64,000 bases of DNA from positions 17,775-81,774 of the forward strand of contig CAZPAH010000002.1 of NCBI GenBank assembly GCA_964584495.1. Direction: 5' to 3'. Both the position numbers and the translations under genes were made by a program. The notes below the pieces were generated by a model that saw only the letters and a program-made list of their open reading frames with translations, made no database searches and had not been told where the DNA came from. Below are positions 25,125-44,253 of this stretch, piece after piece (the stretch's first letter is position 1; each line of letters starts with the position of its first letter). The DNA is from an uncultured bacterium. GTDB lineage: Bacteria > Krumholzibacteriota > Krumholzibacteriia > Krumholzibacteriales > Krumholzibacteriaceae.

Positions 25125-26231
25125 TCACTTTAAAGCATCCAACAAATCCTGCCTCGTCACTATACCGACGATAGACCCCTTTTCGTCGGTAACCGGGACG
25201 AGGCTGTATCCTCTGCCCATGATAAGCCGGTACAATCCCTCGGCCGGATCCGAGCCCTCTGCGCTTTCAAGGAGCCGGGGAAGCTCGATTACCTCTGCGA
25301 CCGCGGTGTCGGACCACCGATCCCTGGCGATATCCCTGAAATCCTCTAGTTTGACAAGGCCTGCAAATCTCCCTCCGATCACTACCGGAAAAGAATCGTA
25401 CCTGTACCTGAGAAAGTATTCCTCGACAAGGGTCTCGAGATCGAGCGAGCCGTCTACCGACACCGGTTCTCTCCTCATTATGTCGGATACCTTCCTCTCT
25501 GCGAGTATCTGCGCGAAGGCGGCATTCCTGTAGCCCGTCGATGCCGCATGCTTTAGAAAGAATCCGATGAATATCATCCATGCTCCGCTGATTAAATTAT
25601 TCTGAAAGAGGATATTCACGACTCCAAGGCCTATCAGCAAAATAGCGAATCCGCTTCCAATCCTGCCCGCCGTTCTGGTGGCCGCTATCATCTCCCCTTT
25701 CCTCATCCATAGGATACTCCGCAGTATTCTGCCGCCGTCCAATGGAAAGCCGGGAACCATGTTGAAAATGAATATCCCTATATTGATTCCGGCCACCGTC
25801 ACGAACAGCGTCTTTATGAGGAAGACCGGAGCCGACAACCAGGCCAGGAGTAAATATACCCCGATGAGAAGAAGTGTCATGGCCGGGCCGGCGGCCGCTA
25901 TCTTCAATTCGAGGTGCGGATCATCCACCTCCCTGCTCATGCTGGCGACGCCTCCGAACATGAACAGCGTTATCTTGTTGATCTTGAGCCCGTTCCTCAT
26001 CGCCACGAGAGAATGACTGAATTCGTGAATGAGAATCGAAGCGAAAAGCATCAGGGCCGTAAGAAGAGAAAGTATCCACAGCGACAAGCCGGTAAAGACC
26101 CCCGGGTAGCTTTCCGGAAAATAACCGGTTGCGAAGGTCGATACGACGAGCACGAGCACGAGCACCCAGCTTACGTTGAGCTCCACCGGAATGCCCCAAA
26201 GCCTGAACAGACGCACACTACTCTTGAACAT
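25125..26231 (-). CDS. M50-family (site-2-protease-like) zinc metallopeptidase with tandem CBS domains
   Basis: HEFSH (HExxH) in a TM helix plus further TM helices. C-terminal pair of CBS domains (VSDIMRREPVSVDG...; GRGYSLVPVTDEKGSIVGIVTRQDLLDALK). Confidence 0.75.
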   Translation of the reverse strand: MFKSSVRLFRLWGIPVELNVSWVLVLVLVVSTFATGYFPESYPGVFTGLSLWILSLLTALMLFASILIHEFSHSLVAMRNGLKINKITLFMFGGVASMSREVDDPHLELKIAAAGPAMTLLLIGVYLLLAWLSAPVFLIKTLFVTVAGINIGIFIFNMVPGFPLDGGRILRSILWMRKGEMIAATRTAGRIGSGFAILLIGLGVVNILFQNNLISGAWMIFIGFFLKHAASTGYRNAAFAQILAERKVSDIMRREPVSVDGSLDLETLVEEYFLRYRYDSFPVVIGGRFAGLVKLEDFRDIARDRWSDTAVAEVIELPRLLESAEGSDPAEGLYRLIMGRGYSLVPVTDEKGSIVGIVTRQDLLDALK

Positions 26232-26269
26232 AGAATCACCCGGGTGAGATTTAACCCTCGATCGGTCCT

Positions 26270-26629
26270 TTAAAGCTCATCCTCCTCGAGGCATTTGACG
26301 AAATTGTTTTTTCCGTCAACCTCGATGAAGATCGGATGAGCCTGGCCGGAGGACCACGAGAAGGCCATTATATCGACGAGGTCGCCCTTGTTGATCAGGT
26401 GGGCGGCGGCCCCGTTCATGCAGATAATCCCCGATCCCCTCCCGCCTTTGATCACGTAGGTTTCAAGCCTCTTACCGTTTGTGCGGTCGACGACATGAAC
26501 GTTCTCATGCTCGCTGAGATTGGCGCGATCGATCAGATCTTCATCAATCGTGATGGACCCCACGTATCTCAGGTCGGCTTGTGTGATCTTGGCTTTGAGG
26601 ATCATCGATTTTAACAAAAGGCGTTTCAT
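26270..26629 (-). CDS. panD: aspartate 1-decarboxylase proenzyme
   Basis: MKRLLLKSMILKAKITQADLRYVGSITIDEDL is near-identical in pattern to the PanD N-terminus, including the Gly-Ser self-cleavage site (YVGSITID). 119 aa. Confidence 0.85.
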   Translation of the reverse strand: MKRLLLKSMILKAKITQADLRYVGSITIDEDLIDRANLSEHENVHVVDRTNGKRLETYVIKGGRGSGIICMNGAAAHLINKGDLVDIMAFSWSSGQAHPIFIEVDGKNNFVKCLEEDEL

Positions 26630-26807: not shown

Positions 26808-28028
26808 TTATCCCCTCATCCTGTTGAAGCCGAGAAGATAGAGCATTAGATATTTCATTTTGAAAAGGCGCATTTTCCAGGCGGAACCTTCCCTCCCCGC
26901 GAATCTATCCAGGGTCGCGATGAAAAAAGCCGGATCGATGCGCTTGGTTATCTGCCGCCCCTTCCATAACCATGGGGAACAGCAGCCGATCCTGTTGATC
27001 TCCGACGGCTCCTGGCCGAAAACATTTTTCCTGTCAGGGTCCCAGAAGTGGGTCGTTGTCGCGAGATATCCGGCTTCCCGGGCGATCATTCTTGCTACGG
27101 GGCCGATCCCGCCGCCCGGCCAGCACAGAAAATCGATGGTGGTTCCCAATCCCGACGACAGGATCTCACGGGACCCGGCCAGCTCGTCGCGGACTCGCCT
27201 CTCGAATTCCCCGTCCGTCTCCATCCTCCCCCCTTCACCTGCCACCTTCGAGAGATCATCGAGCTCCGAACGCCAGCCGTGCCGCTCGAAAAACTCCGGC
27301 CCACCGTTCTCCGCCACATGGCGAACCAGCCTTCCGGTAAGATCGCGGTCCTCGAAATAGCGCTTTCCCGAAAGAGACTTGCCGTGACTGTATATGGGCG
27401 TTCCGTATGGGATTTCCTTTCCGATGTCGAGATTCATGTACTCGTGCTTTCTTCCGGGAAAGAGATTCCAGAAAAGCCAGGGCGGGGTTGCATATCCCTC
27501 GATCCCGCGGGGTCTGTGATAATCGAGTATCTCGGGGCCGTCGAAATACCAGGTATGTGTTTTCGCGTGGGACTGTATTTCGATATGCCCCGAAGCAGTC
27601 ATTTCCTTCATTTCCGCCCAGGAAAGAAACCCCGTCGCTCTTAGATCATCCTCTACCATGAGGCCGTTCCAACAATCCTCGATCGTCGGCCGCCTGCCGG
27701 CATAGGGATCTATAAAATCGGTCGTCATCCAGATGACGCCGCGATGGCCGTACTTCTTGAGAAGCGGGTATGCGTATACCCAGTTGTCGAGATATCCGTC
27801 GTCGAAGGTGAGCACCACGGGCTTCTCGGGCAGCGGCGCGCCCGTTTTCATATGATCGTGCAGCCGGGCGAGCGTGATCGCCGTCCATCCCTCATCCCTG
27901 AGCATCCTCATCTGCCCTTCGAAGACGTCGAGCGGGATAACGAGGTGGTTCCATATCCAATCGGGGTGTTCCGGACCCACACCGTGGTACATTACTACCG
28001 GAATCCCTGCCGGTCCGCTACTCTTCAT
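26808..28028 (-). CDS. polysaccharide deacetylase family protein (carbohydrate esterase family 4-like)
   Basis: NodB-homology motifs VVLTFDDGYLDNW and HGVIWMTTDFI plus a downstream His-rich region. 11-nt overlap with the upstream GT4 gene. Confidence 0.7.
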   Translation of the reverse strand: MKSSGPAGIPVVMYHGVGPEHPDWIWNHLVIPLDVFEGQMRMLRDEGWTAITLARLHDHMKTGAPLPEKPVVLTFDDGYLDNWVYAYPLLKKYGHRGVIWMTTDFIDPYAGRRPTIEDCWNGLMVEDDLRATGFLSWAEMKEMTASGHIEIQSHAKTHTWYFDGPEILDYHRPRGIEGYATPPWLFWNLFPGRKHEYMNLDIGKEIPYGTPIYSHGKSLSGKRYFEDRDLTGRLVRHVAENGGPEFFERHGWRSELDDLSKVAGEGGRMETDGEFERRVRDELAGSREILSSGLGTTIDFLCWPGGGIGPVARMIAREAGYLATTTHFWDPDRKNVFGQEPSEINRIGCCSPWLWKGRQITKRIDPAFFIATLDRFAGREGSAWKMRLFKMKYLMLYLLGFNRMRG

Positions 28029-29280
28029 TCCATCCCCCGGTCTCCGTCCCTTTACCGGGCCGGCCCTTCCCCCGGTACAATTCGAGATAAAGTTTCCCCA
28101 CCCTATCCGCCACGCTCCTCATGCCGTAGCCGGCCTCTATATCGGCGGCCGCTTTTCGACCTAGGCGCGCGGAAAGATCCGGCTCGGCCAGAACCCTCTC
28201 CATCGCCTCTGAGAGGGCCCCCGCATCGCCCGGCGGAACGAGCATGCCGTTTCCGCCACTCTCTATAGTCTCGGGGATCCCCCCAACCGCCGTCGCGACG
28301 ACCGCTTTGCCGGCGGCCATCGCTTCCAGCATCGAGACGGGAAGCCCTTCGCGGATGGATGATAATACAAACAGATCGGCCGCTTCAAGAAGGTCGGGGA
28401 TATCACGCCTCGATCCCGGCAGGACGAAACTCCCCTCCAATCCGAGTTCCGCAGCCTTCGCCAGTATCTCATCCCGGCGGGGACCGTCCCCGGCGATAAC
28501 GCATCTCGCTTCGGGAACCTTCTTCTTCAAGATCGAGAAGCTCTCCGCCAGGAGGGTGTAATTCTTCTCCTCGACAAGCCTCCCCGCAGAGAAGATCAGC
28601 CTGTCTTCTTCTCCCCATCCGAACTCACTCATCACGGCGGCTTTTCCCTTTCCGCCTCCCGCGAAAGATGCGGGATCGACGGCGTTGGGGATATAGATCA
28701 ATTTCCCGGCGGGTGTCTTCTCCCTGTCCCTCCTGATTTCGAGGATATCCCTGCTTACGCATATCCGCATATCGGTAATCCGGTTGAGCAGCCTCTCCAT
28801 GAGAAGGTAGGCCCTGCCCTTCCACAACCCCTTGCCGTGTTCCGTCGTCACGAGCACCGGTACCCGGGCCGCCCGCGCCGCCAATCTCCCCACCACGTCG
28901 GCGAGCACCAGGTGACAGTGCACTACATCGAATCGGCCTTTCCTCAAGAAACGCACAAGCCTGTAAAACGCCGCCGGGAAAAATCTCATTCTGAAATCGA
29001 GGAAAAGTACCGTTTCGACAACGCCTGCGGCCTCCGCCTCCATCTCCCTGTCACCCCGCTTGAAAAGACAGAGGGACACCGACAGCCTGTCCCTGTCCAG
29101 ATGCTTCAACAATTCCAGGACCTGAACTTCCGCCCCCCCGATATGAAAACGCGGAAGCAGGACGCAGACCTTCAGCTTTCTTCCGGATTCTATCAATCTC
29201 ACCCTCCACGCACGGTTAAAGCGCCCCCCGTAGGGGGCTGCCGCATCAGGCGAGTAATGATACCCCCGCTCACGGTTCAA
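28018..29280 (-). CDS. glycosyltransferase family 1 (GT4)
   Basis: GT-B fold. C-terminal motif EGLPVSMLEAMAAGKAVVATAVGGIPETIESGGNGMLV typical of GT4. Start codon choice is uncertain. Confidence 0.75.
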   Translation of the reverse strand: MNRERGYHYSPDAAAPYGGRFNRAWRVRLIESGRKLKVCVLLPRFHIGGAEVQVLELLKHLDRDRLSVSLCLFKRGDREMEAEAAGVVETVLFLDFRMRFFPAAFYRLVRFLRKGRFDVVHCHLVLADVVGRLAARAARVPVLVTTEHGKGLWKGRAYLLMERLLNRITDMRICVSRDILEIRRDREKTPAGKLIYIPNAVDPASFAGGGKGKAAVMSEFGWGEEDRLIFSAGRLVEEKNYTLLAESFSILKKKVPEARCVIAGDGPRRDEILAKAAELGLEGSFVLPGSRRDIPDLLEAADLFVLSSIREGLPVSMLEAMAAGKAVVATAVGGIPETIESGGNGMLVPPGDAGALSEAMERVLAEPDLSARLGRKAAADIEAGYGMRSVADRVGKLYLELYRGKGRPGKGTETGGWNEE

Positions 29281-29325
29281 TCAAAGGTTTTTCGCGGCGG
29301 CACCGGTATCACCGTGAATCCAGAG

Positions 29326-29366
29326 CGGGAAATAATAGGAAAAGGCCGCGACATCCCATCGCGGCC
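29326..29366 (-). terminator. rho-independent terminator downstream of the OMP gene
   Basis: On the minus strand: GGCCGCGA-tgggatg-TCGCGGCC (8-bp perfect stem, 7-nt loop) followed by UUUUCCUAUUAUUU. About 60 nt after the OMP stop. Confidence 0.5.
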
Positions 29367-29426
29367 CTGTAACCACGCCTCGCCGGCGACGTACTCTTGC
29401 CCGGGAACCGGAGAAAACGCCGCGTT

Positions 29427-30110
29427 CTAGAACTCGTAGCCGAAAAGGAGACCGAAACCGATATTCTTCGTCTCCTCCTCTTCCAAAACCTGTGTTTCGG
29501 CGATGCCGTTAATATGTCCCGAAGCAGTGCCCCCGCTGATTATCTTGGCGAAACCGAGGTTGAACCTCCCGTCGACGAGGATATTTCCTCCCCCGATCCC
29601 GTACGCGAAGCCGAAGCCGAAGACGAAGCCGAAGTCGGCGCTGCTCATGACATCCTTCATGTCGAAAGAGCCGTTGACCTGCTGCCCGAACTGTTCCCCC
29701 TCTAGCTTCATGTCTGCGCTTAGAAGTATGCCGACATCCGGTCCAATGAAAAAGGAAGTGCAGAATCCGCTCTCCGTCGGAATCGAGTATTTCGCCAGTA
29801 TCGGTATGTCGAGATAGTTGTACTCACCGGTGAACTTGAGCGCCCCGAAAGGCAGGAACATGATCTCGCCCTCGCATCCCTTCATCGTGTAGAGGAACTC
29901 CGGCTGAACGCTGAAATTCTTCGTGAAAGCGTAATTCGCGAAGGCTCCGCCCACCCATCCGTTCTTGAAAGCGGTGTCGTCCCAGCCGAGCGGAACGGTC
30001 GTGATATTGGCCGAGTATATTCCGCCCTTGGCACCGAAGGATAGCTCGCCGGCCGCAGCGGCCGTATTCAGCATCATCAAAACCGCGAGTAAAGAGATTA
30101 TCCGTTTCAT
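29427..30110 (-). CDS. outer-membrane beta-barrel protein (OmpA-like/porin-family barrel)
   Basis: Signal peptide MKRIISLLAVLMMLNTAAAA. Alternating amphipathic beta-strands. C-terminal ...GLLFGYEF with terminal Phe typical of BAM substrates. Start is set at the internal ATG (MKRIIS), preceded by GGAGAGGATGAA. Confidence 0.6.
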   Translation of the reverse strand: MKRIISLLAVLMMLNTAAAAGELSFGAKGGIYSANITTVPLGWDDTAFKNGWVGGAFANYAFTKNFSVQPEFLYTMKGCEGEIMFLPFGALKFTGEYNYLDIPILAKYSIPTESGFCTSFFIGPDVGILLSADMKLEGEQFGQQVNGSFDMKDVMSSADFGFVFGFGFAYGIGGGNILVDGRFNLGFAKIISGGTASGHINGIAETQVLEEEETKNIGFGLLFGYEF

Positions 30111-30445: not shown

Positions 30446-30461
30446 TGGCACCAGGTTTGCA
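30446..30461 (+). promoter_or_regulatory. sigma-54 (RpoN) -24/-12 promoter consensus TGGCAC-N5-TTGCA
   Basis: Exact match TGGCACcaggtTTGCA with the GG-N10-GC spacing, about 85 nt upstream of the SPFH operon ATG at 30547. Extended context gATTGGCACcaGGTTTGCAcg. No other promoter-like element lies between it and the gene. Confidence 0.5.
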
Positions 30462-30546
30462 CGAATCCCCCACGGTTCAGCATGACACAAAAAAATTACG
30501 GATTTCATTGCACAGGGTGGCCGATTTCTACCGATAGGAGGCTCCG

Positions 30547-31704
30547 ATGTCACAATTCATGGAAGTACTGGAATGGTTCGATCTAACGGGAGAAGAGATA
30601 GTGCACAGGATCCCGCCCGAGGGATCGGCGGAGATCAAGATGGGGGCCCAGCTCATCGTCAGGGACAACCAGGCATCGGTATTCTTCAAGGACGGCAAGG
30701 GACTCGATATTTTCGGCGCTGGACGTCACACCCTTACAACGAAGAACCTTCCGATATTGACCAAAATCCTCGCCCTCCCCTGGGGATTCAAGAGCCCGTT
30801 CAGGGCGGAAGTGTATTTCGTCAACATGAAGTGCTTCCTCGATCAGAAATGGGGCACGAAAGACCCCGTCGCTTTCAAGGACAGCAAGCTGGGGCTCGTC
30901 AGGCTGAGGGCTTTCGGCATCTACACGTTCAAGATCACCGAGCCGGTCCTCTTCATAAACACGGTCGTGGGGACTCAGGGCGTCTATACGAGCGAGATGA
31001 TAGGCAACTACCTGCGCGACGTCATCGTCGCCCGGATAAACGATCTGTTCGGCGAGAAGCTCGACACCATCTTCGATCTTCCGCAGAATTACGACGAGCT
31101 GGCGATGGAGATAAAGGAACGCCTCGTAAACGATTTTTCCAAGTATGGAATGGAGTTAAACGATTTCTTCATCAACTCGATAACCCCCCCTCCCGAGGTC
31201 CAGAAAATGATCGACGAGAGAAGTGGACTCGAGGCGGTGGGAAATCTCGATGATTTCTTCAAGTTCAAGGCGGCCAAGGCGATGGGCGATGCCGCTTCAT
31301 CCGGCGGTTCGGGAGCGACCGGCTCCGCCGCCTCGGGCGGCATGGGGATCGGCGTCGGGGCCGGTCTCGGGATGATGATCCCCGGGATGCTTGCGAAGAG
31401 CGCACAGCCGGGTTCGGCGGGGACGGCCACCGCCTCGGGCAGCGGCCTCCAATGTCCGAAATGCCACAATGAAATAGACGAGGAGTCGCGCTTCTGCCGG
31501 AACTGCGGAACGCAGATCGTAGTGATGAACCGTTGCCCCGAGTGCCGGAGCGAACTACCGCCCGGGGCGAAATTCTGCTCGAATTGCGGCAGCAGACTCG
31601 GAGCGGAATTGAACTGTCCTCACTGCGGCGCCAAGCTGCCTCCCGGCACCAAGTTCTGCACGAATTGCGGGGAAAAGGTGGATAAAGAGGACGATGCAGG
31701 TTAA
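30547..31704 (+). CDS. SPFH/band-7 (stomatin/prohibitin/flotillin-like) protein with Gly/Ser/Ala linker and three C-terminal zinc ribbons (COG4260-like)
   Basis: N-terminal about 245 aa SPFH-like domain. Then a low-complexity linker ([25 protein letters not shown]...). Then three tandem zinc ribbons: CPKC-x10-FCRNCG, CPEC-x10-FCSNCG, CPHC-x10-FCTNCG. RBS GGAGG 6 nt upstream. Confidence 0.8.
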
Positions 31705-32398
31705 ATGCAGCCTCTGCGGAGGCGAAAACGAGCTACATCCAGGACAGCAGATGCTGTTTTGCGTCTACTGCGGATCCTCACTCGCGATAGGCGGCGGAGA
31801 AAAGAGCGAACATCTGATTCTCCCGCACAAGAGGAACGACCGGATCGCCGAAGAGGCCCTCCGGTCTTTCCTGGCAGGGAGGGGGCTCGCGCGTCCCCGC
31901 GAGATCGAGACCGGATTTTCCTATATCCCGTATACCACGGGCGAAGACGATAAGGGCCGCCCCGTGCTTTTGCCCGCTTCCCGAGAGGCGGATCCGACCG
32001 GCGTTCTCGCTTTTCCCCCAGCCGGCAACTACCGCTATTTCGATGAAGAGGCGGCCGGAAAAGAAACGATCGTACAGCCCGGCGGTGAAATTCCGCGCGG
32101 CGTCAAGATGCTTCATCTCCCCGTATACGAGATCTCGTACCGGGCCGGGGGTGGCAGGTGGAAAGCAGCCGTGATGGGCGAGAGCCTTTTCGTCTACGCC
32201 GACGAGTTCCCGCCGGCTCAAACCGCCCCTTTGAGCGCAACCAACATGCTCGCCGCCTCTTGTCTCTTTGTTCTTTACCTCTTCGCGGGGAGATTGGGTC
32301 ACGGCTGGGCGGGACGCCTGCTGGTGACTTCGGCGGCGGCCGCGCTCGGATTCGTCGGATTCACTATCCGCAGAAGGATATTCGATGGTAGAAGATAA
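31694..32398 (+). CDS. N-terminal zinc-ribbon protein with C-terminal membrane anchor (operon partner B)
   Basis: CSLCGG-x14-CVYCG at the N-terminus; conserved LPVYEISYR motif; C-terminal hydrophobic hairpin ([16 protein letters not shown]...[17 protein letters not shown]). Overlaps the SPFH gene by 11 nt, indicating translational coupling. Confidence 0.6.
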
Positions 32399-33431
32399 TT
32401 CAGCGGTGATCGAGACCGGGAGGCGGAATGCCTCGGTCCCCTCCGAACAAGCCGGCGGAGCTTCGCGCGAGACGATAGGAGTGAACTGCCCCTCCTGCGG
32501 GGGATCGCTCCGCCTCCACGAGGGAGAGAGAAGCCTCGAGTGCGAATACTGCGGCTCGGCCCTTTTCGTCACCTGCCCCAAGGGGGTCAAGAGATTCATT
32601 CTTCCGCCGGCGATATCAGCGGGTAAAGCGAGGATGGCCGCGCTTCATCACCTTACGGAGAAGACGAACGGCAGGGTAAAGGCCCGCCACGCCTCGATAA
32701 TCGACCTCCGCCTCATACACGTCCCCTTCTGGCGCATGCACGGCAAGCTGACCGGATGGATCGCCGGCGACATGACCAGCCAGAAGGAGGTCCAAACGGT
32801 AACGCCCACGATAAACGGAGTCCAGGTCAAGACAACCTACCAGGAGGAGAAGCATCCTTTCTCCAAGCTGATATTCAAGGAGGTCGACTGGTCGTCGCCT
32901 GCCTGCTCGGTCCGCCACCTGGGACTGCAGGGGATATCCCTCAAGGCGCGATTCCTCAAGTGGGATGTGTTCGACCATAAGATGACGGAAGAACTGAACA
33001 CCGCCCTTCCCATGAAACCGGTCCGGCGGGCCGAAAGAGAGGGGTTCCAATACCTGTCACGCCTTTCCATGCCGACCGGCTCGAACGTCCGCGGCTCGAG
33101 GTTTCACCTATTCGGCAACACCCTTTCGCTGTACTACTACCCAGTATACATCCTCCGTTACAGGCACAGGGGGATGATTCACGCGATCACCATAGACGGC
33201 GGCGACGGACGGATAATCCGTGGCGATATTCCTAAGAGGAAGCTGATAGATTCGAGATCCCTCTTTTTCATCCCAGCCGGAATCGCCTTCCTCGCGTCCA
33301 CCTGGTTTCCGCTCATTTTTATTGCCGCAGCCGGAGTATACGCCTGGGACTCTTTCCAGGCATCCGCATTCGAGCCTCCGCACAGGTGGCTGCTGGGGCG
33401 TCTCGATGACTGGTTCGGGGGTGAGATGTAG
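32385..33431 (+). CDS. N-terminal zinc-ribbon protein with C-terminal TM helix (operon partner C, paralog of B)
   Basis: CPSCGG-x14-CEYCG; shares the YPVYILRYR / LPVYEISYR motif with partner B; C-terminal TM (FFIPAGIAFLASTWFPLIFIAAAGVYAW). 14-nt overlap with the previous gene. Confidence 0.6.
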   Translation: MVEDNSAVIETGRRNASVPSEQAGGASRETIGVNCPSCGGSLRLHEGERSLECEYCGSALFVTCPKGVKRFILPPAISAGKARMAALHHLTEKTNGRVKARHASIIDLRLIHVPFWRMHGKLTGWIAGDMTSQKEVQTVTPTINGVQVKTTYQEEKHPFSKLIFKEVDWSSPACSVRHLGLQGISLKARFLKWDVFDHKMTEELNTALPMKPVRRAEREGFQYLSRLSMPTGSNVRGSRFHLFGNTLSLYYYPVYILRYRHRGMIHAITIDGGDGRIIRGDIPKRKLIDSRSLFFIPAGIAFLASTWFPLIFIAAAGVYAWDSFQASAFEPPHRWLLGRLDDWFGGEM

Positions 33432-33432
33432 G

Positions 33433-34263
33433 ATGGACGGAAAGATCGGCGTGAAGGTCCTAAGGTGCGAAGAGTGCGGAACGCCGTTGCCCGTTATGGG
33501 CAGGTTCGTGACCTTTCAGTGCCCTACCTGCTTCCGGTTTTGGATCATAAACTCCGACAGGCTGGCCCCTCTTGCCGTTTACAGAGCCCCCCTTCCCGAA
33601 GGTTACGAGGGAGATCCCCTGCTTCTCCCCTTCTGGATGATCGAGATAGAGAAGGAGGAGTTGCGTGGAAGAATAGATTCGTCGCTCGCCAGGCTCAACG
33701 AGGCAGCCATGATCATCGCCGGAAAGAGCCTTGAGGAGAGCCGGGCCCAGGTCGAGATAACTACCGGCGAGATCGAGGGAGATCCCAGCCCGGGCGCCAA
33801 AACGGCGATGATAGGCGACGCCGTGCGCGTCAAGAAATCCGTCTCGGACAGCGAGATCAATTTCCTCTTGAGAAAACTGGAAGGCCCGGGTTTCTCGTTC
33901 GTATACGTTCCGGCCTTCCATACGGTCAACGGCTTCGCCTACCTCAAGGTGGGCCGGCTTCTGACAAGGGTCCAGCCCTCGTTCAAGCCGTCAAGGGTCC
34001 AGCTGCCCGACAATCCAGTCTACTGTGCTCTGACCGCCGACGACGCCCTCTCGCTGATCGACTACGTCTTCTTCGCGACCCTTCCCGAATCGATACGGGA
34101 ATGCGCGGAAATCCTGGAGGATATAGAGCTGCGCCCCGCCTCCCCCCCCAGGCTTGTGGAATTCCCCTTCGAACAGAGGGGTGCCGACCTGAAAAGCCTT
34201 ATCGGTGATTTCAACATATCAATAAGGCTTCTCGACGGCTCGGGAAGGTCTTCGGAGGAATGA
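33433..34263 (+). CDS. N-terminal zinc-ribbon protein, soluble (operon partner D)
   Basis: CEECG-x14-CPTC at the N-terminus with the same C-x2-C-x14-C-x2-C spacing as partners B and C. No TM segments. The ATG lies 1 nt after the partner C stop. The track ORF starts earlier but overlaps partner C. Confidence 0.55.
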   Translation: MDGKIGVKVLRCEECGTPLPVMGRFVTFQCPTCFRFWIINSDRLAPLAVYRAPLPEGYEGDPLLLPFWMIEIEKEELRGRIDSSLARLNEAAMIIAGKSLEESRAQVEITTGEIEGDPSPGAKTAMIGDAVRVKKSVSDSEINFLLRKLEGPGFSFVYVPAFHTVNGFAYLKVGRLLTRVQPSFKPSRVQLPDNPVYCALTADDALSLIDYVFFATLPESIRECAEILEDIELRPASPPRLVEFPFEQRGADLKSLIGDFNISIRLLDGSGRSSEE

Positions 34264-34381: not shown

Positions 34382-34407
34382 GGGGATCGTTTAATCCCTT
34401 TTGTTTA
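34382..34407 (+). terminator. putative intrinsic terminator after the SPFH/zinc-ribbon operon
   Basis: GGGGAT-cgttta-ATCCCU stem-loop (5-6 bp) followed by UUUUGUUU, about 120 nt after the last operon gene. Modest stem, so low confidence. Confidence 0.4.
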
Positions 34408-34521
34408 CAGGCTGTTATTTGGGCGTCTCTTTTTGCCCTGGCCGCCCACCTTTCAGGCAACCTTCTTGCGTTTCGATTCCGCGAGAAGAACGGACAATCA
34501 AATACGGGAGATGAAACGGGT

Positions 34522-36066
34522 TTGACGGAACGAACCGGCCTCGAGGAGCCCCTAAGGGAAGAGATCGCCGCGGAGCGCGAAAGCGCCACCGGTCCCATCC
34601 CCGTCCGATGCGAACCGCCGGAAGGGGCTGAGGACGGCTCACGCGTAATCAGGCGTGTCGCCAGGAACACCCTTTCGCTTACCGGAGCCAATCTCGCCAG
34701 CAGCGGCCTGACGTTCCTCGCCACAGCCTACCTGGCGCGAATCCTCACCGCCGAGGGGTTCGGGATACTCGGATTCGCCCAGGCGGCGATGACCTATTTC
34801 ACCCTCCTGATCAACATGGGGTTCGCCCATTACGGGGTGAGGGAGATCGCCCGCAGGCCGGGCGATGTCGACCGTTACGTCAACAACATCGTCACGATCA
34901 GGACCATTCTCGCCGCGGTGAGCTACGCCCTGCTCTTTCTCTTCGCCTACTCGATCTCGAAACCGTTCACAGTCAAAGCGGCGATCCTCATACTCGGCCT
35001 GAAGCTTTTCAGCCTCACCTTCAACCTCAGATGGGTCTTCCAGGGCAAGGAGAGGATGGGATGGATAGCGGTCAGCAGATTCGTCCCCCAGCTCTTTTAC
35101 GCGGCGGCCGTCTTCCTGCTGGTGGAACACCGCGAGCAGGTCCTAAGGGTTCCCGCACTGCAGGTGGCCTCGACCGCAGCGGGAACCGCCATCCTATTGG
35201 CCCTCTATCTTAGAAGCGGACGGAGGTTGAAATTCAGCATCGACATGCCGTTCTGGAGGGAAATATTCAGGCAATCCATTCCGATGGCGGCCAGCTACGT
35301 TCTCAACCAGGTCTACGTGAACTTCGACATGATCTTCCTGGGTTTCACGCATGGAGAGAAGACGGTGGGATTCTATCACGCCGCGAACAGGATCGTTCTG
35401 ACGATCAACATGTTCGGCACATATTACTTCTTCAGCCTTTTCCCGAACCTCTCGAGAATCTTCTTCGATTCGAGGGAGAAGCTCCAGGCGCTCGTATCGA
35501 ACAGCATTAAATATGTGACGATCCTTCTTTTCCCGGTTGCCGTGGGCGGAACCGTGCTCGCCGGACCGATCATACGGACGGCCTTCGGGAGCGGGTATGC
35601 GGCCAGCGTGCTGCCCCTCCAGCTTCTCATTTGGAACGTCGTCATTATAAATATACGGCAGCACTACAGCAACACGCTGATAGCCTGCAACCTTCAAAAA
35701 CGGTACATGTACTGCGCTGCCCTGGGGGCCGCGACGAACATAGTTCTGAACATGATCTTCATCCCGCGCTTCGGTATGCCCGCGGCCGCCTGCACGACGA
35801 TATTCTCCGAGCTCGTCGTCCTCGCCTCGATCCGCAGGGAAACGGGAAAGATTATAAAAACCCGTATCTGGAGGGTAATCGCCAGGCCCCTGGCGGCCTC
35901 ACTGGCGATGGGCGGTATCCTCCTGCAGACGGGAGGATGGAACATCTTCGGAAGAGTAGCGCTCGGCGCATCGGTCTACTTCCCCCTCCTGTTCCTGGTG
36001 GGAGGCCTGAGCGGAAAGGATATTCGAAGGTTGAGCAGGATCGGCCGCGAACGGAACCGGCGGTAG
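34522..36066 (+). CDS. polysaccharide biosynthesis protein / Wzx-like flippase (MOP superfamily)
   Basis: Polytopic (about 12-14 TM) protein after a roughly 50-aa cytoplasmic N-extension. Hydrophobicity pattern and length match oligosaccharide flippases of Wzx/RfbX type. Confidence 0.6.
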   Translation: MTERTGLEEPLREEIAAERESATGPIPVRCEPPEGAEDGSRVIRRVARNTLSLTGANLASSGLTFLATAYLARILTAEGFGILGFAQAAMTYFTLLINMGFAHYGVREIARRPGDVDRYVNNIVTIRTILAAVSYALLFLFAYSISKPFTVKAAILILGLKLFSLTFNLRWVFQGKERMGWIAVSRFVPQLFYAAAVFLLVEHREQVLRVPALQVASTAAGTAILLALYLRSGRRLKFSIDMPFWREIFRQSIPMAASYVLNQVYVNFDMIFLGFTHGEKTVGFYHAANRIVLTINMFGTYYFFSLFPNLSRIFFDSREKLQALVSNSIKYVTILLFPVAVGGTVLAGPIIRTAFGSGYAASVLPLQLLIWNVVIINIRQHYSNTLIACNLQKRYMYCAALGAATNIVLNMIFIPRFGMPAAACTTIFSELVVLASIRRETGKIIKTRIWRVIARPLAASLAMGGILLQTGGWNIFGRVALGASVYFPLLFLVGGLSGKDIRRLSRIGRERNRR

Positions 36067-36122
36067 TATGACCAAGCGCGGGCCCCTCGCCACCGCGGCC
36101 GCTTCGGAGGAGATGTAGAAGG

Positions 36123-37835
36123 TTGAAAACGGGAAAGGATATCGTCTCAAAATACCGCCTCTCGGCGAATGGAGATCCCGCGGCGGACGATCCCCGCCTC
36201 CGGGGACACCTCTGCAGCCGCCCGTCATACAGGGGGCCCGGCGGCCTCTGGCATCATTCGTATTTCGATGCGCTGGACGGGGGCCGCCCGGTCTACCGCT
36301 GGAACACTGGGGCCATACTGTCGGCGATCTCGTTCCACTACGCCGTCGGAGACATGACGCTCCTCGAGGAGATCCGCCGCGATCCATGGCTTTCCCGGAT
36401 CGACGAGGGCCAGGAACCCTACCTTCTCGATATCCCGCCTCACGGCCGCCGTATCGAAAAAACAGAGACGATCGCCGGGAACCTCCTGGAGAAGCTGCGC
36501 GATGAGGCGGCCGGCGCGTGCCGCGGACGCGACGATATCTATATCCTTCTGTCGGGGGGGCTCGACAGCAGGATCGTTGCCTCAACGGTCGCCCGGTTGT
36601 ACGATGAGGGCAGGATAAAAAACAGGCCGGCGGCCGTGACATGGGGTCTCGAGAATTCCCGCGACTATCAGTACGGCCGGGCCGTCGCCCGGACACTCGG
36701 GTTGGAGTGGATACACATAGATATTGGCCCCGGGACGTTGATCGAGAACATCGAGCTCTCGGCGCTCAACGGAAACCTCCTCCCCCCATCCGACCTTCAC
36801 TGCCTGTCCTGGTTCAGGCGTCTCTCTCCCGCCTCCCTCGTCCTGGCCGGCAGCTATGGCGACTCGATCGGCCGCGGCGAATACAGCGGGCAGCATCTTC
36901 TGGAGCTGAGGTATCACAATCCGTCTAACCTGTTCGGCCTGGTCCGTGCTGAGCTGTGCGCTCCGGCGGCCCGGCGGGTGGAGAAGGAGCTGACGGCGCT
37001 TCGAGGCAGAGGCGCAGGTAGACCCGTCTACGCCGTGTGCGAGCTGGAGCAGCAGGCGCATTACATGAGGGGGATGATCCATCAAGCTATCAGCATCGTA
37101 TCCTCATGGTGCGACGTCTATCAGCTTTTCACAGATCCCTCCGTCTACTCCTACATCTGGTCGATCCACCCATCGCTCAGGGGAAACGCTATCTACGCCT
37201 CACTTCTTGAGCTTTTGGATCGACGCCTCGCCCGTATCCCCTGGGCCAGAACCAACCGGGCCATGAGTGGGAAAACCGTCGGGAGGCTCGGAGGTCTACA
37301 AAAAGAGTTTCACAACTACTCCGATTGGATAAGCGGGGAGCTTTACAAGCGGATATCGGAGTATGTCGATCCCGCCTGGTTCGCCTCCACCGGAATCTTC
37401 AACGGGGACAAGGTCGAGCGGCTGGGGGCACGCCTCTCGCCCGGCCGTGCGGGAGGAGAAGGCGGATCTTTCAAACCGTACAGCGTCTACCTCTGGCTCG
37501 CCGCCTTCAGGAGATTCGCCGAGCTGTGCGGGGAGCGGGGCAAGACGCTCGAGCTTTCTGAGGAAAGGGACAAAGCCTGCCCGAGCGCCCTGCTCGATCA
37601 TCCTCCCGACGACAGGTCCTTCCTGAGAAAGGTTATCGGCAGGTCCAGGAAGGCCAGGGAGCTCAGGCGCAAGTTTCGAAGGGTACGTCTTAAAAAACGG
37701 GCGCTGAAGGAGTTCCCTCCCGAACCGGACGACGGGCGGCTCCACGGGGAAACGTGGAACGGAGCGACCGCCCCGGGAAAAGACCTAAGTCCCGGAATAG
37801 AAAAGACTAAAGTCCCTGTTTCAGGATCCGAATAG
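36123..37835 (+). CDS. asparagine-synthetase-domain protein lacking the N-terminal glutaminase domain
   Basis: PP-loop motif LSGGLDSRIVAS of the AsnB synthetase (ATP pyrophosphatase) domain, but the N-terminus has no Cys-2 Ntn glutaminase signature (MCG). Followed by a full-length AsnB paralog. Confidence 0.55.
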   Translation: MKTGKDIVSKYRLSANGDPAADDPRLRGHLCSRPSYRGPGGLWHHSYFDALDGGRPVYRWNTGAILSAISFHYAVGDMTLLEEIRRDPWLSRIDEGQEPYLLDIPPHGRRIEKTETIAGNLLEKLRDEAAGACRGRDDIYILLSGGLDSRIVASTVARLYDEGRIKNRPAAVTWGLENSRDYQYGRAVARTLGLEWIHIDIGPGTLIENIELSALNGNLLPPSDLHCLSWFRRLSPASLVLAGSYGDSIGRGEYSGQHLLELRYHNPSNLFGLVRAELCAPAARRVEKELTALRGRGAGRPVYAVCELEQQAHYMRGMIHQAISIVSSWCDVYQLFTDPSVYSYIWSIHPSLRGNAIYASLLELLDRRLARIPWARTNRAMSGKTVGRLGGLQKEFHNYSDWISGELYKRISEYVDPAWFASTGIFNGDKVERLGARLSPGRAGGEGGSFKPYSVYLWLAAFRRFAELCGERGKTLELSEERDKACPSALLDHPPDDRSFLRKVIGRSRKARELRRKFRRVRLKKRALKEFPPEPDDGRLHGETWNGATAPGKDLSPGIEKTKVPVSGSE

Positions 37836-37877
37836 GTAAGTGAGCGAAGATCGCCATTATTCAAGAAAGGACCGCTA

Positions 37878-39860
37878 ATGTGCGGCATAGCCGGTATATT
37901 TCATCTCGACCCCAGAGCCGAAGCGGACCGGTCCCTCCTCGCCGGGATGACCGATATCCTCGCCCACAGGGGCCCGGACGACAGCGGGCTCTACGTTGAC
38001 GGCCGGATCGGTCTCGGCCACAGGAGGCTCTCCATAATCGACCTGCGGACCGGTCAGCAGCCGATGTCGTCGAACGACCGCACCGTCTGGCTCGTTCTCA
38101 ACGGGGAGATATACAATTTCAAGGAACTGAGGCGCGAGCTGAGATCGTTCGGCCACGCGTTCCGGACCAGATCGGATACTGAGGTTGTAATTCAGGCCTA
38201 TAACCAGTGGGGAACCGGTTTCCTTGGGAAGATGAACGGCATGTTCGCCCTCGCCCTCTGGGATTGCAGCCGGTCCCGCCTCGTGCTGGCGAGGGACCGC
38301 CTTGGAATCAAGCCTCTCTACACGACCGTCGCGGGAAACGCCCTCCTATTCGCCTCCGAGATCAAGTCGCTGCTCCGATACCCCGGCGTGCGCCGCGAAC
38401 CCGATCCCGAATCGATCTCCGCCTATCTCGGATTCAGGTGCCCGCTCGGCGACAAGACTCTTTTCAAGAAGATAGAAAAGCTGAGCCCGGGACACATGCT
38501 GGTCGCCGAGAACGGCTACCTATCCAAAATATCGTACTGGGAGCTTCCCCTCGATGGAAAGCGGAAGGACCGAGGCGAGGAATACTACGTCAAAAAGATC
38601 CGGTCACTTCTGAAGCGCTCTGTGAGGCGGAGGATGATCAGCGACGTTCCGATCGGCGCATACCTCAGCGGGGGCCTCGACAGCTCGATCATAGTGTCCC
38701 TAATGGCCGGCATGAGCCGGTCCCCCGTGAAGACCTACACGATAGGATTCGAGGAGGAGGGATACAACGAGCGCCGGTACGCCCGGTTGGCGGCCGACAT
38801 GTACGGCACCGACCACCGGGAGATCCTGCTGGGCGACGACGATTACACGAGCCTGATCCCCGAGCTGATCCGCTTCAAGGACGCCCCCCTTTCGGTGGCG
38901 AACGAGATACCGCTCTACGTGATGTCGAGGGAGCTGAAGAAGGATATCACCGTCGTCCTGTCCGGAGAGGGGGCCGACGAGCTGTTCGCCGGCTACGGCC
39001 GTATATTCAGATCTCCATTCGACTACGAGAGGGCCCTCTTCCTTGAAACCGACACCGAGATCCTTCCGCAATACAGGGAAACCCTCCTGTCACGGGTCGA
39101 GGATATATACGGCACCCGCTCCTTCCTGAACGAGCTGGTCCACTTCATGAAAAAGTACAGATGGATGAGTCCCGCCGACAAGGGGATATTCCTCTCACAG
39201 CCCCTTCTCGATTCGATCAACGGGGACGAGAGGGCGCTGGGCTACTTCGCCTCCCAGATGAAGGACGCCATGCATCTGAACCACTACGAAAAGCTTCTCT
39301 ACATCTTCCAGAAAACTCATCTCGAGAACCTCCTAATGCGGGTCGACATGACCACGATGGCTGCATCGGTCGAGGCACGAGTGCCCTTCGTCGACCACGA
39401 ATTGGTCGAGTTCGTTTTCACGATGCCATTCCATTACAAGATCAGATGGAAGAGCGATCTCCACAAGCTGATGGCCGCTTTTCTGGCGAGCGACGAGATC
39501 AGCGAAAAATTCGATACACCTAAATACATACTGAGAAGATCATTCTCCTCCGACCTGCCAGAAGAGATACTGACCCGCCGGAAGATGGGATTCCCCGTCC
39601 CGTTGGACCGGTGGATGGGAGGCGGGTATGCCCTGTTCATGAGGGAGATTCTTCTCGACGGGCGGACGCGCCGAAGGGGGATGTTCAATATCGGTTCGGT
39701 CGAGAAACAGCTGGGCCGCGCAGAGGAACATGACCACGGAACGGCCCTCAAGCTCTGGATGCTTATGAACCTGGAGCTTTGGTTCAGGGAGTATATAGAT
39801 AAACCGGAAGGGGGAAAGGTTTCTGCCGGCCGCGGCCCCGAGCTCGCCGCGGCCGTCTGA
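37878..39860 (+). CDS. asparagine synthase (glutamine-hydrolysing) family amidotransferase
   Basis: Starts MCGIAGIF (catalytic Cys2 of the class-II glutamine amidotransferase), RLSIIDL, PP-loop YLSGGLDSSIIVS. 660 aa, typical of AsnB-like enzymes that sit in polysaccharide loci. Confidence 0.8.
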   Translation: MCGIAGIFHLDPRAEADRSLLAGMTDILAHRGPDDSGLYVDGRIGLGHRRLSIIDLRTGQQPMSSNDRTVWLVLNGEIYNFKELRRELRSFGHAFRTRSDTEVVIQAYNQWGTGFLGKMNGMFALALWDCSRSRLVLARDRLGIKPLYTTVAGNALLFASEIKSLLRYPGVRREPDPESISAYLGFRCPLGDKTLFKKIEKLSPGHMLVAENGYLSKISYWELPLDGKRKDRGEEYYVKKIRSLLKRSVRRRMISDVPIGAYLSGGLDSSIIVSLMAGMSRSPVKTYTIGFEEEGYNERRYARLAADMYGTDHREILLGDDDYTSLIPELIRFKDAPLSVANEIPLYVMSRELKKDITVVLSGEGADELFAGYGRIFRSPFDYERALFLETDTEILPQYRETLLSRVEDIYGTRSFLNELVHFMKKYRWMSPADKGIFLSQPLLDSINGDERALGYFASQMKDAMHLNHYEKLLYIFQKTHLENLLMRVDMTTMAASVEARVPFVDHELVEFVFTMPFHYKIRWKSDLHKLMAAFLASDEISEKFDTPKYILRRSFSSDLPEEILTRRKMGFPVPLDRWMGGGYALFMREILLDGRTRRRGMFNIGSVEKQLGRAEEHDHGTALKLWMLMNLELWFREYIDKPEGGKVSAGRGPELAAAV

Positions 39861-39876
39861 GGGGAGCCTGAATAAG

Positions 39877-40620
39877 ATGAGAGTAATAATACTGGCGGCG
39901 GGAAAGGGAGAACGGCTCTATCCGTTGACGAAAAACAGCCCCAAGAGCCTTCTTGAGCTTGGCGGGGGCAAAACCGTTCTGGAAAGCCAGCTCGAGCATA
40001 TCGCCACGGTGGGGATCGGCGATGTGACAATCGTCACCGGATACAAGACGGAACAGATCGAAGCCAAGGTTCTCGGTTTCGACGGTCTCGAAATCACGAT
40101 CTGCTATAATCCTTTCTTCTCGACGAGCAACAACCTGATATCGGCCTGGCTGGCGATCCGGGAAACGGGGGAAAACTTCGTGCTAGTCAACGGAGACGAC
40201 GTATTCAAGGTCCACGTGCTCTCGGGGCTGCTCGAATCGAAAAACGATATCACCATGGTGATAGACCGCAAGGAGGAGTACGACTCCGACGACATGAAGG
40301 TAATCACACGCGGCGGAAGAATCCTGGAAGTAAGCAAGGAGATCGATCCGGCCAGGGCCGACGGAGAATCGATCGGGATGATCCTATTCAGGGGAAAGGG
40401 CCGAACGATCATCAGGGAGACGCTGGAGAGGATGGTCCGCAGGGATGAAGCCAAGAATATCTTCTACCTGGCCGCCCTCCAGGAGATCATGAACATGGGC
40501 TTCCCGGTGAACTACCATGAATGCTCGCGGGAAGACTGGGCGGAGATCGATTTCCATTCGGATCTTTCATTCATCCGCTCACGGATAGACAGATACGCGG
40601 CCGATATAGTGAACGTATGA
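39877..40620 (+). CDS. sugar-/alcohol-phosphate cytidylyltransferase-like nucleotidyltransferase (IPCT/LicC-like)
   Basis: MRVIILAAGKGERLYPLTKNSPKSLLELGG is the G-x-G-x-R-L nucleotide-binding loop of small nucleotidyltransferases. 247 aa. Confidence 0.6.
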   Translation: MRVIILAAGKGERLYPLTKNSPKSLLELGGGKTVLESQLEHIATVGIGDVTIVTGYKTEQIEAKVLGFDGLEITICYNPFFSTSNNLISAWLAIRETGENFVLVNGDDVFKVHVLSGLLESKNDITMVIDRKEEYDSDDMKVITRGGRILEVSKEIDPARADGESIGMILFRGKGRTIIRETLERMVRRDEAKNIFYLAALQEIMNMGFPVNYHECSREDWAEIDFHSDLSFIRSRIDRYAADIVNV

Positions 40621-40633
40621 TGAAAGGACGGCG

Positions 40634-41398
40634 ATGGAATCGATAGCCGAGCTCCGCGCGCTGTGCCGCAGGGAGAACGACGAGGACAACCGCAAGACGA
40701 TGTTCCTCGCATCGAGGGTCTCGATCTATTTCACCCGGCTCTTCCTTATGATGAATATGTCGGCGAATCAGGTCACCTATCTCTTCATCGTTCTCGGCAT
40801 CGCCGGGTCATTTTCGTTTCTCGGCCCAGGCCCATACTGGGCCCTCGCGGGCTACATACTGATGAGACTACACGTGATCGCCGATGTCTGCGACGGCGAG
40901 GTGGCCAGGTACAGACGCACCTTCAGCTCCACCGGCGCCTACCTCGATTTTCTGACCCATTACCTGGTCTACGGGATCGTGCTGTTCGCCATTCCGCTGA
41001 GGTGCTACATGGATTTCGGCCGTTTCTGGAGCGTGACGGCGGGGTTCGTCCTGGTGCTCTCGAACACGATGAACAGGGCTTCGGTCGATTGCTGGTTCAG
41101 GGCCAACTTCGGCAAAAAGGGAAGAGACGAAATCGAAGAGGGTGGACCGGGCCGCAAGAGGAGTTCCCTCTCCCGCTGGAGAAAGACGGCCGTACTCCTT
41201 GCTTCCCACTCGACGAGCCTCCAGACCTTTCTCAACTTCTATATCGCCGCGGTCATCCTGGAAAGGCTGTTGGCGCTTGATCTCCGTCTGTACCTGATCC
41301 CGGCCTACGCGGCGGCCCTCTCCCTGTTCACCTCGGCCAGGATAGCGCTTACGATAGCGCGGGGGAGGATCCCGCGCAGGGCGACGTACTATTCATGA
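40634..41398 (+). CDS. CDP-alcohol phosphatidyltransferase family protein (DIPPS-like)
   Basis: DVCDGEVARYRRTFSSTGAYLDFL fits D-x2-DG-x2-AR-x8-G-x3-D. The N-terminal helix NMSANQVTYLFIVLGIAGSFSFL resembles di-myo-inositol-phosphate-phosphate synthase-type enzymes. Follows the nucleotidyltransferase by 13 nt. Confidence 0.6.
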   Translation: MESIAELRALCRRENDEDNRKTMFLASRVSIYFTRLFLMMNMSANQVTYLFIVLGIAGSFSFLGPGPYWALAGYILMRLHVIADVCDGEVARYRRTFSSTGAYLDFLTHYLVYGIVLFAIPLRCYMDFGRFWSVTAGFVLVLSNTMNRASVDCWFRANFGKKGRDEIEEGGPGRKRSSLSRWRKTAVLLASHSTSLQTFLNFYIAAVILERLLALDLRLYLIPAYAAALSLFTSARIALTIARGRIPRRATYYS

Positions 41399-41410
41399 GA
41401 CGGAGCGCCT

Positions 41411-42631
41411 TTGAACGGCGCCGGATCGAAAAAGGAGAACCGTTCCCCGATGTCAACCGGCACGGACAGTAACCATGGAACTATCGAGGATATCCTCGAT
41501 CGGATAGAGGAAGTCGCCCGTACCGGCGAGGACCGGCTGGCGGATACCAGGATATGCAGGATAGCCTCCTTTCCGACGAGGGAGTTTCCGGGGAGCGGCC
41601 TTCCCGGCTACTACCTCTGCAAAAATATCAAGGGCCCCACCCTCTTTCTCACGAGAAAGACGGGGGAGCCGGTGGACGTCCCCCCCCACGTCGATCTGAG
41701 GATGATCGATCACTCGAGCCCGCTTCTCGGAGAGAAGATCGATCCATTGAAGGCGGCATCGAAACTTCCCGGCCTTATGAAGTTCTTTCTCTCTACGGTA
41801 AGGCCGATGACCCGCTTCAAACCCGAGATCGTTCATATTCACTCTCCCCTGTACATCCTTCACGCCGTCTGGGCGAAATTCATACTCGGCTCGCGCGTGT
41901 GCATGACCTTCCACGGCTCCGACCTTCTGAGGATAAAGAGATCGAGGATCCTTCAGAAGCTTCTTCCGTGCCTCGTCGATCTCTTCTTCTATGTATCCCC
42001 ATCGATGGCCGCCGACCTGGCGCAATTCATCCCCGTCTCGAGAATGATTCATACTCCCAACGGCGTCGATCTCGATAATTTCAACGACCGGAACCTAAAG
42101 AGGGAGAAGCGGATCGTGGCAGTCGGAAACCTGAGGTGGCAGAAAGGATACGAGTATCTGCTCGACGCTTTCGCCTCGCTCGACGCCCCCGGTTATTCCC
42201 TCGCCGTTCTGGGGGACGGCCCCCTGAGAGACGCCATGGAAAAAAGGATCGAAAAGCTTGGAATGGAAGACCGCATATTCCTCCCGGGAAGAAAGAGCCA
42301 CGAGGAGATCGCCTATCTCCTGAACAGGAGCGAGATCTTCGTAATGTCATCGGTTTCCGAGGGGTTTCCGAAGGCGCTCGTGGAAGCTATCGCATCGGGC
42401 CTTCCCGTTGTGACGACCGATGTCGGCTGCTGCCGTGAGCTGACCGGCGAGGCGGGCATCTGCGTCGCACCCGGCGACGCTGACGCGCTGGCGGCGGCGC
42501 TCGCCAGGCTTATCGACGACGGCGATCTCAGAAAGGGATTTTCCAGGAAAGCATCGGAGTCGGCCGTCAAGTACGGATGGGAAAAACCGTGCGAAACCGT
42601 AAGAGAAGCGTACGAAAAAATCGTATCCTGA
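41411..42631 (+). CDS. glycosyltransferase family 1 (GT4)
   Basis: C-terminal EGFPKALVEAIASGLPVVTTDVGCCRELTGEAGICV motif of GT4 enzymes. Confidence 0.7.
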   Translation: MNGAGSKKENRSPMSTGTDSNHGTIEDILDRIEEVARTGEDRLADTRICRIASFPTREFPGSGLPGYYLCKNIKGPTLFLTRKTGEPVDVPPHVDLRMIDHSSPLLGEKIDPLKAASKLPGLMKFFLSTVRPMTRFKPEIVHIHSPLYILHAVWAKFILGSRVCMTFHGSDLLRIKRSRILQKLLPCLVDLFFYVSPSMAADLAQFIPVSRMIHTPNGVDLDNFNDRNLKREKRIVAVGNLRWQKGYEYLLDAFASLDAPGYSLAVLGDGPLRDAMEKRIEKLGMEDRIFLPGRKSHEEIAYLLNRSEIFVMSSVSEGFPKALVEAIASGLPVVTTDVGCCRELTGEAGICVAPGDADALAAALARLIDDGDLRKGFSRKASESAVKYGWEKPCETVREAYEKIVS

Positions 42632-43417: not shown

Positions 43418-43442
43418 TCGATTCCAGGGTGCGGAGAACCGT

Positions 43443-44234: not shown

Positions 44235-44253
44235 GACATCCCGTTCCGGCGGC

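Follow-up and report, generated by a model that had tools for sequence, protein, structure and literature searches.

A conserved, probable sigma-54-dependent promoter upstream of a four-gene SPFH/zinc-ribbon operon in Krumholzibacteriota

The locus described here belongs to an uncultured bacterium of the phylum Krumholzibacteriota and was analysed within a stretch of 64,000 nucleotides (hereafter the window). [quoted passage not shown] The features of the locus and of its surroundings are:

30446-30461, plus strand: sigma-54 (RpoN)-type –24/–12 element, TGGCAC-CAGGT-TTGCA (consensus match, shuffles, orthologue conservation)
30472, plus strand: predicted transcription start (A), 12 nt 3' of the C of the –12 GC (sigma-54 promoter geometry)
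30472-30546, plus strand: predicted 75-nt leader, between the predicted start and the ATG
30547-31704, plus strand: SPFH protein, 385 aa, soluble (Pfam PF13421, 4.8e-65; DZR; Zn_Ribbon_1; hydropathy and motif scan)
31694-32398, plus strand: g2, 234 aa, N-terminal zinc ribbon and C-terminal membrane anchor (CxxC motifs, TM-like segment)
32385-33431, plus strand: g3, 348 aa, N-terminal zinc ribbon, two helix/long-beta-hairpin modules, C-terminal helical membrane anchor
33436-34263, plus strand: g4, 275 aa, N-terminal zinc ribbon, no membrane segment (motif and hydropathy scan)
34382-34409, plus strand: candidate terminator-like hairpin followed by a T-run, ~119 nt past the g4 stop codon (consensus scan)
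12-4086, 11489-12559, 26808-30110 and 34522-48940: envelope and polysaccharide genes, namely Wzy_C, Wzz-like, three GT4 glycosyltransferases, polysaccharide deacetylase, OMP beta-barrel and Wzx flippase, together with two asparagine-synthase-like genes, a nucleotidyl transferase, a CDP-alcohol phosphatidyltransferase, PAP2 and a PMT_2/ArnT-like protein with TPR repeats

In the SPFH protein a Band_7_1 domain is followed by a Gly/Ala/Ser-rich linker (~241-300) and by three C-terminal CxxC...CxxC zinc ribbons, and no transmembrane segment was found in it by hydropathy. The genes are tightly packed, g2 overlapping the SPFH gene by 11 nt, g3 overlapping g2 by 14 nt and g4 beginning 4 nt past the g3 stop codon, an arrangement of overlapping or abutting genes that suggests translational coupling; the hairpin at 34382-34409 is likely the end of the transcription unit. 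g2 and g3 have an N-terminal module in common (E = 2e-8). No family could be assigned to g2 in Pfam, NCBIfam or PADLOC, nor to g3 in Pfam or NCBIfam, its fold matches being weak, and a search by sequence for solved-structure relatives returned zinc-ribbon noise only. A defence-system reading of the operon was dropped, as the PADLOC defence-system scan gave no matches.

The element at 30446-30461 matches TGGCAC-N5-TTGCW exactly (11/11 specified positions), with the GG of the –24 region at 30447-30448 and the GC of the –12 region at 30459-30460, exactly 10 nt apart, and is preceded by a T, which fits the extended consensus YTGGCAC-N5-TTGCW. From the end of the element to the ATG of the SPFH gene there are 85 nt. 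The earlier, sequence-only reading of this DNA, according to which an exact RpoN GG-N10-GC consensus lies 85 nt before the operon, is thus borne out in coordinates and spacing. When both strands of the window (128 kb of searched strand) were scanned, only two exact copies were retrieved, at 30446 and at 55960, both intergenic and aimed at a gene start 59-85 nt off, and a search allowing one mismatch to TGGCAC-N5-TTGCW returned again these two sites only. The possibility has to be considered that such an element is a chance, functionless match in an intergenic region. Partial matches are indeed common, the looser pattern TGGC-N8-TGC occurring 10 times in the window against 5.2 expected, but the exact pattern is expected ~0 times, and none of 100 dinucleotide-preserving shuffles of the window contained any match to TGGCAC-N5-TTGCW.

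The comparison with related loci bears on this point most directly. With the 385-aa SPFH protein as a query, 80 loci were collected from species-representative genomes. The closest (73-84% identity) carry Candidatus Krumholzibacteriota or Krumholzibacteriia labels or belong to unlabelled or evidently mis-binned metagenome-assembled genomes (MAGs), and the farther ones (54-66% identity) come from Desulfobacterota, Zixibacteria, Nitrospirota, Ignavibacteria and Methylomirabilia; in a large protein database the relatives are named [quoted passage not shown]. At a threshold of at least 70% protein identity, the set of related loci amounts to 53, of which 32 are from genomes and 21 from metagenome contigs. 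In all 53 of them the element precedes the orthologous gene and departs from the consensus at no more than one position, and both GG and GC are retained in 54/54 orthologous sites. All 32 Krumholzibacteriota-type genome loci have TGGCAY-N5-TTGCW upstream of the orthologous start codon, and an independent metagenome scan found the strict motif in 20 of the 21 loci with at least 70% identity, the exception (L091, CGGCATACCTCTTGCA) having one mismatch with GG and GC intact. The distance between element and start codon in the orthologous loci is mostly 74-96 nt, with outliers at 59-63, 122-125 and 202 nt. Controls on the opposite strand and in the coding region seldom exceeded 8/11 matches.

When 33 genome sites are aligned on the element, every core position reaches 2.0 bits and a T immediately precedes the core in 32 of them; the 5-nt spacer occurs in 22 variants, and the pairwise identity of the flanks is 28%, i.e. 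nearly random. A search of 530 kb of Krumholzibacteriota DNA, on either strand, gave 34 strict motifs, of which 33 stand before the SPFH operon and one at 55960, against 0-4 strict motifs in shuffles of the same DNA. An element that stays unchanged in 53/53 orthologous loci amid randomised flanks requires purifying selection, which is acting phylum-wide on exactly the bases contacted by sigma-54. A chance match is effectively refuted by this conservation, and its probability is negligible.

The presence of the element follows the form of the operon. The four genes are constant across Krumholzibacteriota and the upstream neighbour differs by locus (OMP, GT4, polysaccharide deacetylase or M50 protease): g2 is kept in all Krumholzibacteriota loci, g4 is kept 3' of g3 wherever the locus is long enough, and by tblastn all four genes are present in every sufficiently long locus of the phylum. 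Outside the phylum just two genes are retained, the SPFH gene and one g3-like zinc-ribbon gene of ~470 aa, the partner proteins having a weak match to the TFIIB-type ribbon PF08271, and the motif is missing from all 48 genome loci of other phyla and from all 59 metagenome loci below 70% identity (0/107 homologous loci outside the phylum, genome and metagenome pooled). The promoter thus strictly co-occurs with the four-gene form, and its absence from the modules of other phyla makes the operon a clear example of regulatory rewiring confined to one lineage. As for the gene content of the other loci, in L025-L080 (non-Krumholzibacteriota) a single protein of ~465-515 aa with an N-terminal zinc ribbon is encoded directly 3' of the SPFH gene, and a small co-directional ORF (160-260 aa, no known family) precedes it in several loci from deltaproteobacteria, Nitrospirota and Methylomirabilia. 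Near-identical operon homologues labelled Patescibacteria, Bacteroidales or Bathyarchaeia (L010, P0125, P0136, P0237) are probably mis-binned contigs, as their sequence identity and synteny with Krumholzibacteriota indicate. In many relatives an M50 site-2-protease-like gene with CBS domains (25125-26629, minus strand, in the window) and panD, encoding aspartate decarboxylase, are also found upstream of the operon, at a variable distance.

Closer relatives suitable for footprinting were sought in the metagenome scan, which gave none above 87% identity save one identical 2-kb contig. In a tight subgroup of ten loci the alignable part starts exactly at TTTGGCAC and runs through the leader to the ATG, the sequence 5' of the promoter being not alignable. 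Since conservation starts at the –24 element, the promoter is placed at the 5' edge of the conserved transcription unit. These data also bear on a further explanation, namely that the sigma-54 holoenzyme binds here to a poised or roadblock site and that the operon is transcribed from an unrecognised promoter of the sigma-70 family. Sites that sigma-54 occupies without productive transcription have been described in E. coli (PMC4591121), and no upstream activator sequence (UAS) was found (see below). A simple scan of the 436-nt intergenic region revealed no sigma-70-like site on the plus strand, a scan that could miss a real promoter of this phylum, whose own sigma-70 consensus may differ. Against this explanation, the site is intergenic, correctly oriented and mostly 74-96 nt from the start codon, and in close relatives conservation begins at the element with nothing upstream of it conserved, so that no conserved alternative promoter is left. 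We regard a roadblock as improbable.

From the geometry of sigma-54 promoters, transcription is predicted to start near 30472. The leader carries an AGGAGG ribosome-binding site at 30536-30541, which is the sole leader element shared across loci. It has no Rfam match, and in single-sequence folding it is less stable than its own shuffles (z = +1.7). In one subgroup (L003, L006, L009, L011, L012, L013, L084, L086, L087, L089) the 5' UTR is ~85-90% conserved, and RNAalifold on this subgroup gave no covariation support; a riboswitch or structured leader was discarded, as it found no support in Rfam, in single-sequence folding or in RNAalifold.

The second exact copy of the consensus, TGGCACACAGGTTGCT (55960-55975, plus strand), is followed after 59 nt by the ATG (56035) of a monocistronic gene for an Ig-domain (He_PIG, PF05345) lipoprotein-like protein, which is divergent from LemA (55021-55623, minus strand) and an M48 peptidase. 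This element is kept in all five orthologous Krumholzibacteriota loci (L162-L166), 53-61 nt before the start codon. Upstream of it, at a fixed distance of 112-116 nt in all six loci, there is an invariant block, TGGCAnnnTGAGAAT (55846-55860, plus strand), which has the geometry typical of an enhancer and may be regarded as a candidate UAS of the second promoter; it possibly represents the LemA promoter region instead. The leader of the lipoprotein gene (55990-56030, plus strand) contains a conserved GAGGGGACAAC-AGGACTCA, followed by AGAGAAGGAGG, and several GGA motifs, which are reminiscent of the sites of CsrA-type regulators. Further downstream two long opposed ORFs overlap, 56896-57885 on the plus strand and 56986-59481 on the minus strand. 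The plus-strand ORF was rejected as spurious, because synteny in five relatives favours the minus-strand gene, whose product measures ~820-875 aa across loci and has faint YhdP/DUF748 matches.

A position weight matrix built from 46 orthologous sites was also scanned over the window. It was rejected as a regulon finder, since it over-fits the C/T-rich spacer of the SPFH operon itself and scored the genuine site at 55960 within noise.

Signatures of rpoN and of bacterial enhancer-binding proteins (bEBPs), searched across all 166 loci and the window, were found only in three deltaproteobacterial loci. In the literature on Krumholzibacteriota the main texts are silent about sigma-54, and one supplementary KEGG table is informative: rpoN (K03092) is annotated in MAG bin 3.1, which is 94.5% complete (PMC10936416, Tables S2c and S3) and belongs to a different, 71% GC branch of the phylum (PMC10936416), the window having 57% GC. 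Sigma-54 is near-universal in free-living diderm bacteria with LPS, where it is tied to functions of the cell exterior (PMC3162934), and genes of outer-membrane, O-antigen-ligase and YhdP-like type are found in the window. The second conserved sigma-54 promoter, the K03092 annotation of bin 3.1 and the near-universality in diderm LPS bacteria lend indirect support to the presence of rpoN in the source genome.

That this support is indirect leaves some room for another interpretation, in which the 16-mer is an operator of a different DNA-binding protein, or an RNA element, and its likeness to a sigma-54 promoter is coincidental. Most operators are palindromic, and the element is not. There is neither a stable fold nor an Rfam match. 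Conservation copies the sigma-54 logo position by position (the T, TGGCAY, a free 5-nt spacer, TTGCW, at a fixed spacing), a second, unrelated gene has the same conserved element, and rpoN is annotated in the phylum (PMC10936416). Such a coincidence is highly improbable.

Taken as a promoter, the element is of a type already known and canonical, and it reveals no new mechanism. It has in common with canonical RpoN promoters (YTGGCACG-N4-TTGCW, e.g. E. coli glnAp2) the core, the GG-N10-GC, the preceding T and the placement before a gene, and the logo over 54 loci agrees with the known sigma-54 logo. It differs in its host, an uncultured phylum of the FCB group with no sigma-54 regulon described in the literature searched, and in lacking any detectable activator site upstream or activator gene nearby. 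The interpretation as a sigma-54 promoter, already proposed in the sequence-only reading, is strengthened: consensus, distance and orientation fit, the match is far above chance and it is conserved in 53/53 related loci. Very probably, therefore, 30446-30461 is a functional sigma-54 (RpoN)-dependent promoter of the four-gene operon 30547-34263.

A bEBP gene need not be linked to its target promoter, and there are bEBPs that work without binding DNA. In the window, none of the GAFTGA, bEBP Walker-A and RpoN-box motifs was found in any of the six frames, no match to Sigma54_activat was obtained among ~50 window ORFs (Pfam), and in over 50 relatives no bEBP gene lies closer than 10 kb to the operon. 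Both the six-frame motif scan and the Pfam scan agree with the earlier statement that the window has no gene for an enhancer-binding protein. Since neither the window nor the vicinity of the operon in relatives has a bEBP gene, the activator would be encoded elsewhere, as had been proposed. An upstream activator-binding inverted repeat had been suggested as something to look for, and a dyad search found none conserved; similarly, no conserved upstream activator sequence emerged from k-mer enrichment, from a position-free comparison of 10-mers or from the alignment of the tight subgroup, the ribosome-binding site alone rising above background. The only IHF-like site upstream is a weak match with one mismatch at 30342, near chance level. 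An enhancer shared by the two promoters was rejected, TGGCAnnnTGAGAAT being absent upstream of the SPFH promoter.

On these grounds the following mechanism is proposed. RNA polymerase with sigma-54 would bind the GG at –24 and the GC at –12 in a closed complex, unable to start unaided, and an AAA+ enhancer-binding protein, whose gene lies at another place in the genome, would open the complex with ATP. Transcription starting near 30472 would give a polycistronic mRNA with an unstructured 75-nt leader and a strong ribosome-binding site. As the sigma-54 closed complex needs its activator, the operon would stay silent until a specific signal switches the enhancer-binding protein on. The products would probably form a membrane-associated scaffold, as the analogy with B. 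subtilis YdjI/SamI suggests. In it g2 and g3, anchored in the membrane, may recruit the soluble SPFH/zinc-ribbon protein, and the complex may act in membrane or envelope homeostasis. The parts of this scheme that concern the identity of the activator, its signal and the physiological role are inferred.

As regards function, the sequence-only reading had drawn a parallel with the PspF/sigma-54-dependent phage-shock (psp) response. What stands of it is the regulatory logic: in E. coli pspABCDE/PspF, as proposed here, an activator-dependent sigma-54 promoter precedes an operon whose membrane-associated products have a plausible link to membrane integrity (PMC9239133). The effector is different, ESCRT-III-like in E. 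coli and an SPFH protein here. PspA (PF04012), PspB, PspC and Sigma54_activat gave no matches among the operon proteins and the ~50 window ORFs, and no PspA was found beside the SPFH homologues in other phyla. With PspA, PspB/C and PspF absent both here and at homologous loci in other phyla, the operon is not a Psp system, and the parallel is an analogy only.

The B. subtilis protein YdjI (also SamI), which we take to belong to PF13421, provides another term of comparison. Like the SPFH protein of the operon, it lacks a membrane anchor and carries a low-complexity linker and, at its C-terminus, a zinc finger (PMC8581546; bioRxiv 10.64898/2026.02.06.704340), with one zinc motif against the three ribbons of the Krumholzibacteriota protein. 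In samGHI, too, the SPFH gene is encoded together with a zinc-ribbon-bearing membrane protein and is served by an alternative, stress-type sigma factor. YdjG, with its zinc ribbon, and YdjH recruit YdjI/SamI to the membrane, where YdjI/SamI is needed for the formation of PspA foci, and the operon is under the membrane-stress factor sigma-W (PMC8581546; PMC9239133; bioRxiv 10.64898/2026.02.06.704340). g2 and g3 each combine an N-terminal zinc ribbon with a C-terminal anchor, and the PF08271 ribbon, weakly matched by the partners in other phyla, is the domain reported for YdjG; g2, g3 and g4 form a family restricted to Krumholzibacteriota, and the likeness of g2 and g3 to YdjG/YdjH is one of architecture. 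Differences from pspA-ydjGHI concern the sigma factor (the ECF factor sigma-W there, sigma-54 here), pspA (the first gene there, absent here) and the position of the SPFH gene, which is last in B. subtilis and first in Krumholzibacteriota.

A soluble SPFH/zinc protein, zinc-ribbon membrane partners and an alternative sigma factor together make a role in membrane or envelope homeostasis a reasonable proposal by analogy. The envelope-stress role put forward in the sequence-only reading gains from the YdjI/SamI architecture and the related literature (PMC8581546) and is still an inference; a membrane-stress role is plausible by comparison with that system. The neighbourhood rich in polysaccharide and outer-membrane genes fits a broader cell-surface role equally well. 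It is accordingly possible, if not the probable case, that the promoter is real and the operon serves the assembly of cell-surface polysaccharide, development or nutrient-dependent membrane remodelling, sigma-54 reporting a metabolic signal and not damage. The conserved neighbours (GT4, polysaccharide deacetylase, OMP, Wzx flippase and asparagine-synthase-like, with Wzy_C and Wzz-like farther off) point in this direction, as do the broad association of sigma-54 regulons with the "bacterial exterior" (PMC3162934), the absence of PspA, PspB/C and PspF, and the finding that B. subtilis cells without SamI are also altered in biofilm formation and in motility (bioRxiv 10.64898/2026.02.06.704340). 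On the other side, YdjI/SamI, the only studied protein of such architecture, is stress-regulated and recruits PspA (PMC8581546), and in the window scans the SPFH/zinc-ribbon genes fall in no polysaccharide pathway family. Genes related to the envelope follow both conserved promoters of the window, which agrees with the "bacterial exterior" of Francke et al. (2011; PMC3162934), in the main text of which the terms "stomatin", "flotillin" and "Band 7" are absent.

Enhancer-binding proteins lacking a DNA-binding domain occur in Chlamydia and Helicobacter. A bolder and rather unlikely version of the membrane-stress role would be that Krumholzibacteriota rewired an ancient and widespread two-gene module, SPFH plus zinc ribbon, into a PspA-independent system of membrane stress or membrane organisation with four genes under sigma-54 control, whose activator would need no conserved enhancer of the usual upstream kind and would act from solution, as in those two genera, or through a site in the conserved leader.

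With the sigma-54 promoter as the preferred reading, the SPFH/zinc-ribbon operon and the Ig-domain lipoprotein gene would represent the first comparatively validated members of a sigma-54 regulon for this uncultured phylum, and a YdjI/SamI-like membrane scaffold module would be under strictly activator-gated transcription throughout Krumholzibacteriota. This backs the general view that sigma-54 governs functions of the cell envelope, and the GG/GC of the promoter offers a simple reporter target for finding the activating signal.

A third and weaker site of sigma-54 type, TGGCGTTCTTCTTGCA, is present at 2577-2592 on the minus strand, with one mismatch to TGGCAY-N5-TTGCW and with GG and GC kept. 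It adjoins the stop codon of a GAF/HisKA-like ORF (2605-4086) and lies ~135 nt before a GNVR/Wzz-like gene (1412-2452), which is accompanied by a Wzy_C O-antigen ligase gene (12-1406), so that it may be considered a possible third promoter site of this type in the window.
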